Positions 1-6,024 of a stretch of DNA of 8,594 nt are shown here, one piece after another. Under the pieces are notes generated by a model. It did not search any database, was not told the DNA's origin, and worked only from the letters and a program-made list of their open reading frames with translations. The DNA lies in IMG/VR virus record IMGVR_UViG_2690316210_000003, positions 1 to 8,594 of that record, one strand, 5' to 3'. Origin of the DNA: a virus (Duplodnaviria > Heunggongvirae > Uroviricota > Caudoviricetes). Positions within the stretch are counted from its first letter, which is position 1; every line of letters starts with the position of its first letter. The translations under genes were made by a program, and so were the position numbers.

Positions 1-986
1 GGAAAATCGATACTGGAAAAACTCTAACTCGGTGGCCAGTTTTTGTTGACCACTTCAACGCGAATATGTCACTGGCAACGTTCTATAACACTGTCTTAGG
101 CGAAACCTTCGATGATCTTAACGAAGACCGCACAGCCGACGAACTGGAAACGCTGAAAACTGATATTAGCCTAGACAATATTCCTGATGATGTATTGGCT
201 CTGGTAGGTGGAGTTGACCAGCAAAAAGACCGTCTGGAATCTACCTTGCTGGGTATTTCTCGTAAAGGGATATGTGTAGTTGATCACCGATCATTCTATG
301 ATGTGAACTGCGAACGCCACGAATCACTAGCATATAACCAGCTTTACAACTTCCTGAAAGCGAAATTCTATACCCGATCCGGTGAACGAATCCCGATGTT
401 ATCTGCTTTCGTGGACTCATCGAACGGACGAGCTACAAACGTGATCTATCGATTCTGTAGTCGGTGGCAAAATCTAACCGCCATTAAAGGCGCAAGCAAT
501 GTTGATGCTCCAATCCTTCCGGTAAAAGACACAAGAACGGGCGGTTTTACCCTTAAAATTCTGGGCGTAAACAACCTTAAAACGATGATCCGTGAAATGA
601 TTAACCGGAACTTGAGAGATGGCGATCCTCACACTGTCTTCCAGATTGGTGACGTTCCTGATGACTACTGCGAGCAATTGCTATCTGAACAGTTGAAACG
701 GCAGGGTAATACCACACGTTGGGTAAAAGTTGGACAAGCACGAAACGAGGCTCTCGACTGCCTGGCTTATTCCTATGCTGCTTCTCGTCATGTGCTCAAT
801 AAAATGTCATGGGAAAAACTCGAAGCCATCAAAGATAGTTTGAACCGCGAACCAGAAGAATCCGTAAAAGCTCCTGAAACGCAATCTGACGAGCAAATCG
901 AAGAAACTAAGCCAATCACACGACCACAACGTCAAAACATCGCCAGACGCCCAAATAGAGGCCGTAGCTGGGTAACATCGTTCTAA
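1..986 (+). CDS. Probable terminase large subunit, C-terminal portion (5'-partial; gene starts upstream of window)
   Basis: The frame of the listed 66..986 ORF is open from the first full codon (nt 3) to TAA at 984-986. ATG at 66 has no Shine-Dalgarno upstream (aacgcgaatATG), so it is probably an internal Met. Placement directly upstream of the portal candidate fits a packaging ATPase/nuclease; the C-terminal RNEALDCLAYSYAA segment resembles lambda gpA-like terminases from memory only. Confidence 0.55.
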   Translation, partial: KIDTGKTLTRWPVFVDHFNANMSLATFYNTVLGETFDDLNEDRTADELETLKTDISLDNIPDDVLALVGGVDQQKDRLESTLLGISRKGICVVDHRSFYDVNCERHESLAYNQLYNFLKAKFYTRSGERIPMLSAFVDSSNGRATNVIYRFCSRWQNLTAIKGASNVDAPILPVKDTRTGGFTLKILGVNNLKTMIREMINRNLRDGDPHTVFQIGDVPDDYCEQLLSEQLKRQGNTTRWVKVGQARNEALDCLAYSYAASRHVLNKMSWEKLEAIKDSLNREPEESVKAPETQSDEQIEETKPITRPQRQNIARRPNRGRSWVTSF

Positions 987-992
987 TAACTC

Positions 993-1010
993 GCCGTCCT
1001 TCGGGGCGGC
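993..1010 (+). promoter_or_regulatory. GC-rich RNA stem-loop with UUCG tetraloop, no U-tract
   Basis: gccgtcc-ttcg-ggggcggc forms a 7-bp stem (one G-U pair) closing a UUCG loop, 7 nt after the terminase stop; the following sequence (ttactcc) is not U-rich, so it is not a classical intrinsic terminator. Confidence 0.45.
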
Positions 1011-1022
1011 TTACTCCTAAAT

Positions 1023-1042
1023 ATTGTTAATCCAATAACAAT
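1023..1042. repeat. 7-bp inverted repeat ATTGTTA-N6-TAACAAT upstream of the 164-aa gene
   Basis: Perfect 7-bp arms with a 6-nt spacer, read directly from the sequence; AT-rich, so chance occurrence is not excluded. Confidence 0.3.
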
Positions 1043-1046
1043 TAAA

Positions 1047-1058
1047 TAAGGGGTAATT
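1047..1058 (+). promoter_or_regulatory. Ribosome-binding site (ATAAGGGGTAAT motif)
   Basis: AAGGGG core 5 nt upstream of ATG 1059; same extended motif recurs at 1549, 5304 and 6012. Confidence 0.7.
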
Positions 1059-1553
1059 ATGAGTTTAGAACTAATTCCCTTAGTAATTCGTAAAGGCGAA
1101 AAAATCACGCTGGCGAATGAAGAGGGTGTAACAATTCAGGTAGGAAATAGTAAAGGTATCATTTATCAGGTTGATGATTCTCCGGCTAATCACGAGATTA
1201 AAACTCTCTCATTCGAGATAGGTAAATATACCATCGTAATAACTTTGGAAGAAGAACTGGTATCAATGCAGGAATTAACTGTTTTGCCAGTATTCGCCAA
1301 ACAATCCAAAAAAGAATATCTGCGGGAAACTATCGCCTTAATCGAGCAAGTTATTTTCGCCCGTTTATCTGGGGACGAAGCCGCATTATCTCAAATGACC
1401 GTGAAAGGAAATACTTTCGCCTATGAGTCATTGGCTGTTCTCCAGACTCTAAAAGTCGATTATGAACGTCAACTGTCTAAATTAATTCAAGCCGAACGAC
1501 GTAAACAGGGAATTAGCCCGATTAAAAATATCAAATTACGTCTTACGCGATAA
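1059..1553 (+). CDS. Hypothetical protein (164 aa), unknown function
   Basis: ATG with strong upstream RBS; stop TAA 1551-1553 overlaps the RBS of the next gene. No motif I can recognise. Sits between terminase and portal, where lambda has W, but is much longer than W. Confidence 0.8.
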   Translation: MSLELIPLVIRKGEKITLANEEGVTIQVGNSKGIIYQVDDSPANHEIKTLSFEIGKYTIVITLEEELVSMQELTVLPVFAKQSKKEYLRETIALIEQVIFARLSGDEAALSQMTVKGNTFAYESLAVLQTLKVDYERQLSKLIQAERRKQGISPIKNIKLRLTR

Positions 1554-1563
1554 GGGGTAAATC
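1549..1563 (+). promoter_or_regulatory. Ribosome-binding site overlapping upstream stop codon (ATAAGGGGTAAATC)
   Basis: TAA stop of the 164-aa gene (1551-1553) is the first three bases of the TAAGGGG element; ATG 1564 follows 6 nt after GGGG. Confidence 0.7.
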
Positions 1564-3075
1564 ATGTTTAATCTTTTTCGACGCAAAAAGGCGGTAGAAA
1601 CTCCAGTTAAAACTAATCACCGCCAGCAACAACCAAAAATTTTCATCGATAAGCAAGTAGAAAAATTTCAGAAAGACCTGAATACACGTTCATTGGGATT
1701 AGTTGGTGATCGCATTGATGGATCGCTTCAACAAGATACTATCACAGGAACCTTCAATAAGGCTCTCAAATCGAACGGTAAGCGCCTTTATGATCAGGGT
1801 CGTACTCTGGCTATAAACAATGCTGTAGGCAAGCGATACAAGCAGTATATCGTTGACCAAGTTGTTGGTACGGGGCTTGATCCGAAACCATCAATCGTTA
1901 AATCAAATGGCAAACTTGACACCGCACTGAATAAGCAGATCGAGAATGCTTTCTGGAAGTGGGCGCAGAGTGCTAAACGCTTCTCTCGCAACGGTCGCTT
2001 TAACTTCCGTGAAATGCTGGCAATGGCAGAATCTGAACGTGTTCAGGGTGGAGAATGCTTCATCGTTTTAACCAAAGAGAACAATGAGTTACAAGTTTCT
2101 ATTCTGTCTGCTGATAGGTGCGACTGGTCGCTTAGTCGTGAAATAAGCAAAGAACGTGCGATCTATCAGGGGATTGAGTATGACGTAGACACAATGCGCC
2201 CTGTAGCATACTGGTTTAGAAAAATCAATCTACTGACTCAGACCTACACTGGCGAAAATTATCGCGTAGATGCTTCTCAGGTGTGCCACTACTACCAGCC
2301 ACTGTGCGCGGAAAGTTTACGTGGTGTGACTGACTTCCTGCCAGTGATTAAGGATATTGCGCATCAAGAAGCGTTCCGCGAAACCGCGATCGTCCAGAAA
2401 CGTATTGCAGCTAGCTCTATGGGCTTTATTGAACGTCCGAAAGATTCTGGTGACGATTTTGATACTGGTGAAGAGGATGAACAATATCAAGCGCCGGAAG
2501 TAGTACAGGACTTTGCACCGGGTACTATTCAGGAATTGCCGGAAGGGGCAACAATCAAGAGCATTCAATCATCGCAAAATGGCGATGACTTTAACAGCTT
2601 CAATGATGCGATGTTCACTAGCGTATCAATGGGCTTAGGCGTGTTCAAACAGGGCTTAACAGGAGATTGTTCACAGATCAACTACTCAGCCGCACGTTTT
2701 GGGGAACTAACCCAGCGTAACCGCATTAAAGCACTGCAAAACAAATTGATTGAAACAGTGGTATTGCCAATTTTTGAAGCATATCTACGCCATTATTCCG
2801 CGCGTGGTATTGTTCCGATTCGTATTACTGCAATTCCGCATATTATCGATAATACAACTATTATTCGTCCGCGTTTTGAATCCGTCGATCCTATTAAAGA
2901 CGTAAACGCCGAGATTGCTTTAATTCAAAATGGTCTTAAATCACGTACTGCCGTTATATTAGAACGTGGTGATGATCCTGAAAAAGTATTCTCAGAGATT
3001 CAAGCCGAAAAGAGCGCACTAAATATTATCGTTGATGGCGAGGGTGAAGAAAAAAATTCCCCAGCCGATCCCTAA
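1564..3075 (+). CDS. Probable portal protein (503 aa)
   Basis: Size typical of portals, position between terminase and protease/capsid, acidic C-terminal tail (DGEGEEKNSPADP). Assignment is by synteny and size, not a verified homology hit. Confidence 0.6.
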   Translation: MFNLFRRKKAVETPVKTNHRQQQPKIFIDKQVEKFQKDLNTRSLGLVGDRIDGSLQQDTITGTFNKALKSNGKRLYDQGRTLAINNAVGKRYKQYIVDQVVGTGLDPKPSIVKSNGKLDTALNKQIENAFWKWAQSAKRFSRNGRFNFREMLAMAESERVQGGECFIVLTKENNELQVSILSADRCDWSLSREISKERAIYQGIEYDVDTMRPVAYWFRKINLLTQTYTGENYRVDASQVCHYYQPLCAESLRGVTDFLPVIKDIAHQEAFRETAIVQKRIAASSMGFIERPKDSGDDFDTGEEDEQYQAPEVVQDFAPGTIQELPEGATIKSIQSSQNGDDFNSFNDAMFTSVSMGLGVFKQGLTGDCSQINYSAARFGELTQRNRIKALQNKLIETVVLPIFEAYLRHYSARGIVPIRITAIPHIIDNTTIIRPRFESVDPIKDVNAEIALIQNGLKSRTAVILERGDDPEKVFSEIQAEKSALNIIVDGEGEEKNSPADP

Positions 3076-3083
3076 TAACCAAC

Positions 3084-3100
3084 GGGGGCGCAATGCCCCC
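3084..3100 (+). promoter_or_regulatory. GC-rich stem-loop (GGGGGC/GCCCCC), no U-tract
   Basis: gggggc-gcaat-gccccc, 6-bp G:C stem 8 nt after the portal stop and 20 nt before ATG 3121; followed by aattaatt rather than a T-run. Confidence 0.45.
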
Positions 3101-3108
3101 AATTAATT

Positions 3109-3120
3109 AAAGGTGATTAA
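3109..3120 (+). promoter_or_regulatory. Ribosome-binding site (AAAGGTGATTAA)
   Basis: AGGTGA 4 nt upstream of ATG 3121. Confidence 0.65.
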
Positions 3121-3630
3121 ATGCTTAAATTTCGCCGCGAACTTAACGGTTACGGTGGAGTTATTAACGAAGGGCATACTGATCAATACGAATTTGAAAT
3201 TGCTTTCTCCAGTGAACAGCCTTATCAGCGCCAATTCTGGGATGAGCAAAATCAAGAAATGGTGGTATTAGATGAAATTCTGGTACATACACCGGAAGCG
3301 GTTGATCTGTCTCGTCTGAATAATAACGCTCCGTTGCTGTTTAATCATAATTTCGATAATCATTTAGGTGTCGTTTGTAACGCTCGAATCGATGCGGATA
3401 AAGTAGGCCGTGCGACCGTTAGATTCTCTAAGCATGGCACTTTGGCTAATGATATTCGTAATAAAGTCATTGAAGGTACGATGGAAAAAATTTCTGTCGG
3501 CTATGACATTAAAGAATATCACATCGATTATGCCAAAGGACAATTGATTGTTACTAAGTTTGTTCCTTTCGAATTAAGTTTTGTTACGGTCCCGGCGGAC
3601 GATTCGGTCGGTTTAAATCGCTCTCTAAAT
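3121..3630 (+). other. HK97-type prohead protease domain (approximate bounds)
   Basis: Candidate catalytic His76 and Ser125 are 49 residues apart; I recall the same spacing for HK97 gp4 (His65/Ser114), unverified. Confidence 0.5.
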
Positions 3631-5124
3631 ACTATCACAGTTAATTTGGAGGCTAAACGCGATATGACTAAAGAACAAATTGAAGAAATCAAAGAAGAAC
3701 AAGAATCCGCTCAGGTTGAAGAAACTCCGGTAGAAGAAATTAAAGAATCGGAAGTTGAAGAAACTCAAGAGCGCCAAGTTGAAGAGAATAAAGAAGATGA
3801 AAATCTCGAAGACGGAAAAGACGCTGAACATCCTGAAAGTGTTGATGATGATAGTTCAACTGTTCGGGAAACAGAAGAAGTAAAAGAAGAACGTGAAGCT
3901 GCTCCGGTTGAAGAAGAAAAAACCGAGGAAGTGGCTGAACGTTCCGAAGAAGACGAATTAGAAATCCGCGAAATTGCACGCGAGCTAAATATTAACGACG
4001 AAGAATTAGAACGCGCATTGGCAGTTAAAGACATGACGCCGGAAGCATTCCGCACTAAGGCACTAAATAACATTACCAATGCTCAACGTATTAACGAACA
4101 ACAAATTAAGGACTCTAAAATGGAAAAAACTTTTGACCTGAACAACGTAATTCGCTCTCTGGTAGATGGTGAAGCTCTGGGTGCTCACGAAGCCGAGTTT
4201 TCTGCAATGGCTGCTACTGCAACTATGCAGCGTGGTCGTGCTGCTCGTGGTGGCTCTGTATTCGTTCCGGCTGCTGCTATGCGTGCTGCTGCTGCTGGTA
4301 ACACCAAAGCTGACCTGACTGCTATCACTGACGAAAAACTGATGACTGAATCCTACATCGAAATGCTGATGCCGGAATCCGTTCTGGGTCGTCTGGGTGT
4401 GACTGTTTATAGTGGCTTGACTGCTCCGACCGCTATTCCAAAAATGACTAAATCCAGCGTTGACGCTTTCGGCTTCGTTGATGAAAACGGTGCTGCACCG
4501 GAAGGCAAAGCTGAATTTGCAAACGTGAAACTGTCTCCTAAGACTTTTGCTGGTGGGAACCCGATCAGCCGCCAGAGCATCAAAACCGTACCGGGCATCG
4601 CTACCCTGATCACTGATCACATCAACCAGGCTGTTCGCATCAAACTGGAACAACTGATTCTGTCTGACAAAGCTAACGATCGTGGTCCGGCTGGTCTGGT
4701 TAAACAACTGGTAGACGCTAGCCGCGTTGAGAAGAAAGCTGCTTTCACCTACAAAGACTTCCTGAAAGAAATTGCTAAACTGACCGACGCTGGCGTTCCG
4801 GCACAGTCCATCAAGTTTGCAATGAGCGGTGCAACTGCTGCTGAACTGGAATCTACCCTGAAAGATAACGGCGTTTCTGGTTATATCATCGAAAACGGCA
4901 AACTGGCTGGTTACGAAGTAGTTACTTCTGGTGTTATTCCGGCAGACCACATCGTTCTGGGTGACTTCTCCGGTATTACTATCGGTGAGTGGGGCGGTCT
5001 GGAACTGGATATGGACGACACCACCTACCGCGCACAGTCCGCTATCGTTCCGCGTATCTGGGTAGATCTGGATTATGTAGTTACCCAGCCGGAAGCTCTG
5101 AAAGTTCTTCACGTCTCCGAATGA
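3121..5124 (+). CDS. Prohead protease - scaffold-like acidic segment - major capsid protein fusion ORF (667 aa)
   Basis: Single uninterrupted ORF. The N-terminal ~170 aa carry HK97-type prohead protease (S78/U35-like) motifs as I remember them: LLFNHNFDNHLG (His76), KISVGYDI (Ser125), ELSFVTVPADD. Residues ~182-333 are Glu-rich and low-complexity, like a scaffold/delta domain. Residues 334-667 are Ala/Gly-rich with strongly optimised codons, typical of a major capsid protein. Confidence 0.75.
   Translation: MLKFRRELNGYGGVINEGHTDQYEFEIAFSSEQPYQRQFWDEQNQEMVVLDEILVHTPEAVDLSRLNNNAPLLFNHNFDNHLGVVCNARIDADKVGRATVRFSKHGTLANDIRNKVIEGTMEKISVGYDIKEYHIDYAKGQLIVTKFVPFELSFVTVPADDSVGLNRSLNTITVNLEAKRDMTKEQIEEIKEEQESAQVEETPVEEIKESEVEETQERQVEENKEDENLEDGKDAEHPESVDDDSSTVRETEEVKEEREAAPVEEEKTEEVAERSEEDELEIREIARELNINDEELERALAVKDMTPEAFRTKALNNITNAQRINEQQIKDSKMEKTFDLNNVIRSLVDGEALGAHEAEFSAMAATATMQRGRAARGGSVFVPAAAMRAAAAGNTKADLTAITDEKLMTESYIEMLMPESVLGRLGVTVYSGLTAPTAIPKMTKSSVDAFGFVDENGAAPEGKAEFANVKLSPKTFAGGNPISRQSIKTVPGIATLITDHINQAVRIKLEQLILSDKANDRGPAGLVKQLVDASRVEKKAAFTYKDFLKEIAKLTDAGVPAQSIKFAMSGATAAELESTLKDNGVSGYIIENGKLAGYEVVTSGVIPADHIVLGDFSGITIGEWGGLELDMDDTTYRAQSAIVPRIWVDLDYVVTQPEALKVLHVSE
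3664..4119 (+). other. Glu-rich scaffold/delta-like segment with in-frame internal ATG at 3664
   Basis: About 150 residues dominated by E/K/V with 39-bp periodic GTTGAAGAA(ACT) repeats (3715, 3754, 3778); GGAGG at 3648-3652 lies 11 nt upstream of the in-frame ATG 3664. Confidence 0.45.
4120..5124 (+). other. Major capsid protein domain (HK97-fold candidate) with in-frame internal ATG at 4120
   Basis: AAGGA at 4108-4112 lies 7 nt upstream of ATG 4120 (MEKTFDL...). From here to the stop, Leu is almost exclusively CTG and Arg CGT, with Gly GGT and Ala GCT favoured, unlike the upstream part of the same ORF. Confidence 0.6.
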
Positions 5125-5146
5125 ACTAGCTTAGAACCTTCTGAAC

Positions 5147-5167
5147 CTTCCCCCGATTTGGGGGAAG
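5147..5167 (+). promoter_or_regulatory. Perfect 8-bp stem-loop (CTTCCCCC-gattt-GGGGGAAG) 22 nt downstream of the capsid stop
   Basis: Read directly; followed by purine-rich sequence, no U-tract. Confidence 0.5.
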
Positions 5168-5261
5168 AAAATCTGATTCCATCTCAGGAAGAAGAAGTTC
5201 AAGAGGTTACGGCGAAAGCCACAGTTAAAAAAGAACGTAAGACTAAAGCAAAATAATAATT

Positions 5262-5288
5262 AGCCCTGCCTAACGGTGGGGCTTTTTT
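5262..5288 (+). terminator. Rho-independent terminator after the capsid gene
   Basis: agccctgcc-taac-ggtggggct forms a 9-bp stem (two G-U pairs) followed immediately by TTTTT(T); located after the TAATAA double stop. Confidence 0.7.
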
Positions 5289-5303
5289 GTATGTAAATAC
5301 TCC

Positions 5304-5318
5304 ATAAAGGGGGTAACT
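5304..5318 (+). promoter_or_regulatory. Ribosome-binding site (ATAAAGGGGGTAACT)
   Basis: GGGGG 5 nt upstream of ATG 5319; begins only ~15 nt after the terminator U-tract. Confidence 0.7.
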
Positions 5319-5609
5319 ATGTTCAAATTATCAGAATCACAATTATCAAGAATGTTTAAGAGTGCTCCTGTATTTGTGGTGGAAGGTGGTAAATCAATTC
5401 GTGCTTACCATGAAATTACTACTACCGACGAACAAGGGGTAATTACAGAATCAGAATTTCTATTTTGTCGTGAGGGAGACTTAAATCAGGGTGATGTTGT
5501 CATTGTAGACGGTGAACGCTTCAAAGTTCAATACGTTAAGCGCAATGGTGATAATACTTCTGATTGCTTTATTGCTCGTGCAGGGGGTACACATGCTCGC
5601 TACCGTTAA
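5319..5609 (+). CDS. Small virion protein (96 aa), possible head-tail adaptor/head-closure protein
   Basis: Strong RBS; the C-terminal GDVVIVDGERFKVQYV segment resembles the end of head-tail joining proteins as I recall them. Position is immediately downstream of the capsid gene. Function tentative. Confidence 0.75.
   Translation: MFKLSESQLSRMFKSAPVFVVEGGKSIRAYHEITTTDEQGVITESEFLFCREGDLNQGDVVIVDGERFKVQYVKRNGDNTSDCFIARAGGTHARYR
5582..5592 (+). promoter_or_regulatory. Ribosome-binding site embedded in the 3' coding end of the 96-aa gene (AGGGGGTACAC)
   Basis: GGGGGTA + 3 nt + ATG 5593, same geometry as the RBSs at 1059, 5319 and 6025. Confidence 0.6.
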
Positions 5610-6015
5610 TAATATGCCGAGACTGAAAATCAAACGCGCCTTGCAAGATATTATCGAACAAGATTTAGGTCTGGCTTTAAACGTAGAACAAACTCAGCAA
5701 GGCTTTAGTGATGACGTGGTTTGTTGGATTACTGGCATGAATGAAACTTATACGCGTGTTCGTGGTGGTAATGCAATGCAAGCTGAATGCGTTATCGAAA
5801 TGCAGTTGTATTCTCAGAATCATGAAACAAAAATCCATGAGGGTATTTGCCAGATAATCCAGATTCAGCCGGATAACCCACGATTTAAAGATTTGGGCTT
5901 CTCTATTTCAGATATCACTCCAGTAGCTTCTAATACCGATTATGACGATGATTCTAGTGATGGGGGTATCGTTGGGACACTTAGCCTTAAATTTTCTTAT
6001 CTAGCGCGTTTTTAA
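5593..6015 (+). CDS. Hypothetical structural protein (141 aa from ATG 5593), possible connector/tail-completion protein
   Basis: Same frame as the listed 5512..6015 ORF, but 5512 is a GTG with no RBS inside the upstream gene; ATG 5593 has the conserved RBS. Overlaps the upstream gene by 17 nt. ATG 5614 is an alternative start without a recognisable RBS. Confidence 0.7.
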   Translation: MLATVNNMPRLKIKRALQDIIEQDLGLALNVEQTQQGFSDDVVCWITGMNETYTRVRGGNAMQAECVIEMQLYSQNHETKIHEGICQIIQIQPDNPRFKDLGFSISDITPVASNTDYDDDSSDGGIVGTLSLKFSYLARF

Positions 6016-6024
6016 GGGGTAATA
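6012..6024 (+). promoter_or_regulatory. Ribosome-binding site overlapping upstream stop (TTAAGGGGTAATA)
   Basis: TAA stop 6013-6015 forms the start of TAAGGGG; ATG 6025 lies 5 nt after GGGG. Confidence 0.7.

Follow-up and report, generated by a model that had tools for sequence, protein, structure and literature searches.

In phage lambda, the tail terminator gene U (8552–8947) begins inside the end of gene Z (7977–8555), the two genes sharing the 4 nt ATGA. Gene overlaps with an internal Shine–Dalgarno sequence are textbook arrangements, and translational coupling is the classical behaviour of such overlaps. The junction described here, between the genes of two predicted neck proteins, has in common with the lambda Z/U type that the downstream start lies in the end of the upstream gene and that the ribosome-binding site is carried by the upstream coding sequence. 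It differs in the length of the overlap, which is 17 nt in our locus (8 nt in distant relatives) compared with 4 nt in lambda, and in the partner of the terminator gene, which is a gene for a putative lambda gpFII-like stopper, with no Z-like gene in between, instead of Z. It is an ordinary compact overlapping junction, the start of which is already annotated by RefSeq PGAP, and the start call in itself brings nothing new. In lambda and related siphophages, the stopper and the tail terminator are both hexamers, which are in contact when the head joins the tail.

The stretch of DNA that was analysed (the window; 8,594 nt, positions 1 to 8,594 of IMG/VR record IMGVR_UViG_2690316210_000003) is the late structural module of an Escherichia coli prophage, and all of the genes listed here lie on the plus strand. 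It opens with the C-terminal part of a gpA-type large terminase (66–986), followed by the genes for a head–tail joining-like protein of 164 aa (1059–1553), a lambda-family portal (1564–3075) and a protease–capsid fusion (3121–5124). Next come the two genes of the junction, encoding the predicted lambda gpFII-like stopper of 96 aa (a head–tail connector for head closure; 5319–5609) and the predicted tail terminator of 140 aa, with a lambda gpU-like fold (5593–6015, starting at ATG 5593). These are followed by the gene for a 277 aa protein (6025–6858), which weakly matches a PHROG annotated as ‘major tail protein’ (E = 1e-8), and by a fibre gene that starts at ATG 6932 and is still open past the end of the window. 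Among 5426 complete E. coli genomes, 54 (about 1%) carry DNA related to the window. No relative of the window DNA was found among sequenced phages by megablast or tblastn, nor in a scan of one genome per species, and an Rfam scan of the window gave no match (best E = 0.93).

The order of the genes that follow the junction is unusual, running from the terminator to the 277 aa protein, a fibre of 1100–1200 aa and an annotated tail tube protein of 156 aa (6827–11878 in locus L001). The annotated tail tube gene is not adjacent to the terminator gene; it lies two or more genes on, past those of the 277 aa protein and of the fibre of roughly 1200 aa, and in loci L055 and L057 three further small genes stand between the terminator and the tail tube. 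Two minus-strand ORFs inside the fibre gene (7066–7689 and 7976–8467) are probably spurious, with no convincing Pfam or PHROG match, the second having a weak match to PHROG 35665 (E = 0.0023). A third minus-strand ORF (5481–5633), together with a promoter-like site at 5531–5502, was rejected, such sites occurring at chance level (three found for 5.0 expected). Some relatives also carry an extra gene of 340–486 aa that is absent from the window and looks like a mobile insertion. It occupies the interval between the capsid and stopper genes in L003 (1199–2659), L004 (1620–2657), L007 (635–1681) and L009 (1629–2663), with matches to the DUF723 and CapR domains, and the interval between the portal and capsid genes in L055 (3861–4883; 340 aa, no domain information).

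The reading frame of the terminator is shifted by +1 relative to that of the stopper and offers four candidate starts: GTG 5512, ATG 5545, ATG 5593 and ATG 5614. The longest ORF in this frame (5512–6015, 167 aa) begins with the GTG codon, which an earlier note made from the sequence alone had described as devoid of a ribosome-binding site, placing the start at ATG 5593 instead. The calculated duplex with the anti-Shine–Dalgarno sequence at the 3′ end of 16S rRNA agrees with this, with −10.7 kcal/mol at ATG 5593, compared with +0.3 kcal/mol at 5512, −0.6 kcal/mol at 5545 and +1.2 kcal/mol at 5614; an energy of −8 kcal/mol is reached by only ten of the 392 candidate start triplets in the window. 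The GGGGGTA-N3-ATG geometry that the same note had pointed out can be read directly: GGGGGTA (5583–5589) is followed by CAC, a gap of 3 nt, and then by ATG 5593, all within the last codons of the stopper gene. The stopper ORF (5319–5609) ends with ...IARAGGTHARYR (TAA at 5607–5609), so that its C-terminus, ...ARAGGTHARYR, encodes both the ribosome-binding site and the start codon of the terminator, the Shine–Dalgarno sequence GGGGGT (5583–5588) being formed by the Gly-Gly codons GGG GGT inside the stopper coding sequence. The two genes overlap out of frame over 17 nt (5593–5609), as had been stated, and this dual-coding plus-strand segment reads HARYR* in the stopper and MLATVN in the terminator. 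The product is one residue shorter than the 141 aa announced, since the 141 codons of 5593–6015 include the stop codon, which leaves 140 aa. The motif GGGGTANNNATG occurs four times in the window, compared with 0.03 expected (none of 200 shuffled sequences reaches four), and all four copies lie on the plus strand at the ORF starts 1059, 5319, 5593 and 6025.

We compared the junction across 46 loci of the E. coli/Salmonella clade, comprising the window itself, RefSeq genomes of E. coli and contigs from Logan, ENA, NCBI and IMG/VR, with terminator proteins that are 47–100% identical to that of the window. The independent lineages behind these counts are few, about 12 distinct sequence types plus five distant loci. 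An equivalent of ATG 5593 is found in 46 of the 46 loci, with the 17 nt overlap likewise present in all of them. The Shine–Dalgarno site that precedes it is kept at an unchanged spacing in every locus, with duplex energies between −9.4 and −10.7 kcal/mol, and takes the form GGGGGT, GGGGGC or GGAGGA. Despite divergence elsewhere, the first Gly codon of the pair is always GGG or GGA and never GGT or GGC in these 46 loci. No observation speaks against this start. The invariance, together with the stops found upstream (see below), shows that the terminator is translated from ATG 5593 with a Shine–Dalgarno sequence embedded in the Gly-Gly codons of the stopper.

The segment 5512–5592 has a pN/pS ratio of 0.32 when read in the stopper frame, compared with 1.06 in the terminator frame, and the former value is similar to that of the rest of the stopper gene (0.39). 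Diversity per site over this segment is highest at the third codon positions of the stopper, which are the second positions of the terminator frame, and the codon-position profile matches that of the rest of the stopper gene. In the overlap itself (5593–5609), diversity per site is lower than in the flank at all three codon positions. We may then ask whether the terminator could start further upstream, at GTG 5512 or ATG 5545, as a protein of 156–167 aa bearing a membrane-anchor or signal-like helix. The form from GTG 5512 is the longest ORF and would open with VNASKFNTLSAMVIILLIALLLVQGVH, and the out-of-frame extension 5512–5592 would yield peptides from SAMVIILLIALLLVQGVH; this segment is strongly hydrophobic, the extension is open in 29 of the 46 loci and 42 loci have ATG 5545. 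However, only 14 of the 46 loci have a start codon at the GTG 5512 position, and in-frame stops interrupt 5512–5592 in 17 loci (12 of the 24 distinct sequences), 16 of which have a stop only 9–12 nt before the ATG. The loci with stops include close relatives, with terminator proteins 98–99% identical to that of the window. The long ORF is effectively refuted by these in-frame stops in relatives. Moreover, no Shine–Dalgarno site accompanies either 5512 or 5545, ATG 5545 is an unavoidable consequence of the stopper's Asn-Gly codons AAT GGT, and no homologue of any length carries the extension. The hydrophobic, transmembrane-like N-terminus had already been called odd for a structural protein, and the predicted fold is that of a soluble tail terminator, a ring protein that would have no use for a membrane helix. 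The transmembrane-like character arises because stopper codons ending in T, read one base later, become xTx codons (Val, Ile, Leu, Phe or Met); T occupies the third position in 12 of the 16 stopper codons between 5544 and 5591. We therefore give an upstream start practically no credence: the long ORF from GTG 5512 is, on this comparison, an accident of the alternative frame, and 5512–5592 codes in the stopper frame only. The call for a reassigned start is justified against a naive longest-ORF prediction, but the RefSeq PGAP annotation of five E. coli genomes already has the same start and the same 17 nt overlap, and the metagenomic gene calls all use the ATG 5593 equivalent with this overlap.

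A second in-frame ATG (5614–5616, plus strand), corresponding to Met8 of the terminator, lies 4 nt past the stopper stop codon. Reinitiation a few nucleotides past a stop is a known process, and translation restarting at ATG 5614 without a Shine–Dalgarno sequence would give a protein of 133 aa and leave the two genes without overlap. An ATG is found at this position in 43 of the 46 loci, and residues 1–8 of the terminator are disordered in the structural model, so that a protein devoid of them could fold. Yet this ATG has no Shine–Dalgarno site (the duplex energy is the positive value given above) and it is not a conserved start. Its codon is CTG in the other three loci (L003, L009 and L010) and its position is occupied by Leu in the distant homologues P0012, P0014, P0015 and P0019, each of which starts 3–11 residues earlier, whereas ATG 5593 and its Shine–Dalgarno site are invariant. 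In distant relatives, too, the start is located 8 nt before the stopper stop codon and not after it. ATG 5614 cannot be the start of the family; it may serve as a minor secondary start in this phage, and we consider it very unlikely as the functional one.

These distant relatives are five IMG/VR loci with 22–32% identity to the window, in which an upstream FII-like ORF of 104–119 aa and the terminator gene overlap by 8 nt (ATG NNN TAA type) with the same frame relation. A terminator start placed inside the end of the stopper gene, on the same strand, is accordingly common to the 46 loci and the five distant ones. The same arrangement is found at this distance, and the junction is therefore an old and conserved feature; the E. 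coli clade has moved the terminator start three codons upstream.

The run of five G residues at 5583–5587 raises another reading, in which it acts as a +1 frameshift site producing a stopper–terminator fusion. If tRNA-Gly slipped by +1 on GGG G, the two frames would be joined precisely, and a database protein of 193 aa (P0010) is such a fusion. However, the 2 kb Logan contig that encodes it (L053) has G4 in place of G5, and a second deletion of 1 nt about 160 nt further on breaks the frame again. On the basis of these two indels in the contig alignment, P0010 was rejected as a case of recoding and attributed to an assembly error or a decaying prophage. No other fusion is found among the homologues, and the G5 run is not conserved, since L009 and L010 have GGAGGA. 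Frameshifting at this site seems to us next to impossible, and separate translation of the terminator from ATG 5593 is retained.

The 140 aa protein has no Pfam or PHROG match at E = 0.01 or better, and it is called ‘hypothetical protein’ in all of the records examined, both those of RefSeq and those of the protein collection. Isolated members of the family touch the terminator PHROGs 78, 123 and 37 (E = 0.045–0.14). The family is very small: when 1.84 billion representative proteins were searched with a profile, only ten relatives were retrieved. The full-length homologues are 134–141 aa long and their first residues align with the beginning of the profile; down to 22% identity, none of them has the hydrophobic extension. 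The AF2 model built from 15 sequences has a mean pLDDT of 82.6 and a pTM of 0.76, with residues 1–8 disordered ahead of the first helix (pLDDT below 50 for residues 1–5). When this model was compared with the PDB using Foldseek, the matches were lambda gpU (PDB entries 3fzb, 3fz2 and 8iyd), T5 p142, the pyocin R2 collar and the SaPI1 and NF5 neck terminators (E of about 1e-6 upwards), and also Listeria Antigen B and T4 gp15; nearly all of the 50 matches at E ≤ 1e-3 are terminator, collar or neck chains. The likeness to lambda gpU is seen in the fold (E = 3e-6, probability 1.00, TM 0.53–0.60), in the size (140 versus 131 aa) and in the position of the gene directly after an FII-like gene. Unlike gpU, which belongs to the Pfam family Phage_tail_U, the 140 aa protein has no Pfam or PHROG membership. 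At the sequence level, an hhalign comparison of the terminator with lambda gpU was collinear but not significant (probability 1%), and profiles made from the terminator and stopper alignments gave chance matches only when run against PDB sequences. On the predicted fold and on synteny, the 140 aa protein is identified as a tail terminator with a lambda gpU-like fold.

As for the upstream gene, the stopper matches the Pfam family PF05354 (Phage_attach) over residues 27–79 with 25.5 bits (E = 2e-5), just below the curated cut-off of 26, and PHROG 161 (‘head closure Hc1’) with E = 0.0017; PF05354 is matched by seven of the 13 stopper orthologues at E = 0.01 or better. Its AF2 single-sequence model is of low confidence (pLDDT 62.5, with residues 89–96 below 50) and its weak Foldseek matches are to chains of neck stoppers, among them 8xow_f of the lambda virion. 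The protein resembles lambda gpFII in following the capsid gene, in its small β-rich predicted fold and in its PF05354 match; it departs from it in the score just below the cut-off, in the low model confidence and in the hhalign comparison with gpFII, which was collinear but not significant (probability 12%). With the reservation of a sub-cut-off Pfam score and a low-confidence model, we describe the 96 aa protein as an FII-like stopper.

The locus is thus, with little doubt, the junction of the stopper and terminator neck genes of an E. coli prophage, with the terminator starting at ATG 5593, and we infer from the conserved geometry that the two genes may be translationally coupled. Some ribosomes would initiate directly at the strong Shine–Dalgarno site of ATG 5593, while others would finish the stopper at TAA 5607–5609, 14 nt downstream of this ATG, and restart at ATG 5593. 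Such coupling would hold two proteins that are expected to form stacked hexameric rings at roughly equimolar amounts. A stricter version, which we regard as possible but doubtful, is that the conserved overlap (17 nt in the clade and 8 nt at 22–32% identity) would be an obligatory termination–reinitiation device fixing the stopper and the terminator at 1:1, with selection on both the Shine–Dalgarno sequence and the protein keeping the stopper's Gly-Gly pair as GGR-GGN. Folding of the RNA between 5545 and 5645 revealed no structure beyond that of shuffled sequences (minimum free energy of −19 kcal/mol compared with a shuffle mean of −21.6 kcal/mol, z = +0.77). With a strong Shine–Dalgarno site and no RNA structure to occlude it, dependence on upstream translation is not implied, and independent initiation at ATG 5593 may suffice. 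What is new at this junction is the tail-terminator label for a 140 aa protein annotated as hypothetical; the longest-ORF rule misplaces the start of its gene.

A hairpin resembling a rho-independent terminator (5262–5283; AGCCCTGCC-TAAC-GGTGGGGCT, followed by TTTTTG) lies between the capsid gene and that of the stopper, and would reduce transcription of the low-copy neck genes compared with that of the capsid gene. Upstream of it, the protease–capsid gene ends with TGA followed by A (5122–5125), and its frame stays open for 43 codons past the TGA (TSLEPSEPSPDLGEENLIPSQEEEVQEVTAKATVKKERKTKAK) up to a double stop at 5254–5259; a further hairpin (5147–5168) lies inside this extension region (5122–5259). 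Readthrough would give a junction reading ...LHVSE-W-TSLEPSEPSPDLGEENLIPSQ..., and the extended form would carry an acidic linker rich in proline and a basic tail of AT-hook type (KRGRKPK or KKxGRPPK). The TGA-A stop is found in all 43 loci of the E. coli clade that include the end of the capsid gene (33 distinct DNAs), and the extension frame is open for 28–45 codons across several in-frame indels, while both other frames carry stops in 33 of the 33 distinct sequences. The adjoining C-termini of the capsid proteins are highly diverged (pS of 0.43–0.56). In three of the five E. coli genomes examined, the module has just one other gene ending with TGA-A, that of the annotated tail tube protein. 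It is followed there by a paralogous in-frame extension of 39–41 codons, TNEELP...VTAKATAKRGRKAKN or TNEELP...EVTAKATAKRGRKAKN (L001, 11876–12004; L052, 17744–17866; L056, 12620–12748), and then by a terminator hairpin; in L055 and L057 the tail tube gene ends with TAA and has no extension. The 3′ half of the tail tube extension has almost the same DNA sequence as the capsid extension, and given this near-identity the two could be copies of a repeated terminator cassette. The pN/pS ratio of the capsid extension is only 0.68, and the probability of an open frame past the capsid stop arising by chance is about 0.05. No protein containing the capsid extension was found in a collection of 5.8 billion proteins, tblastn of the extension peptides against phages gave no match, and we found no description of a capsid readthrough extension in the literature. 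Parallels exist in the UGA readthrough that gives the A1 protein of phage Qβ, in the 10A/10B frameshift of T7 and in the capsid and tail proteins that Listeria phage PSA makes by frameshifting. The extension (5122–5259) is a more promising lead from the window than the junction itself: the pattern suggests programmed UGA readthrough, which would produce C-terminally extended minor forms of the capsid and tail tube proteins, the two most abundant proteins of the virion.
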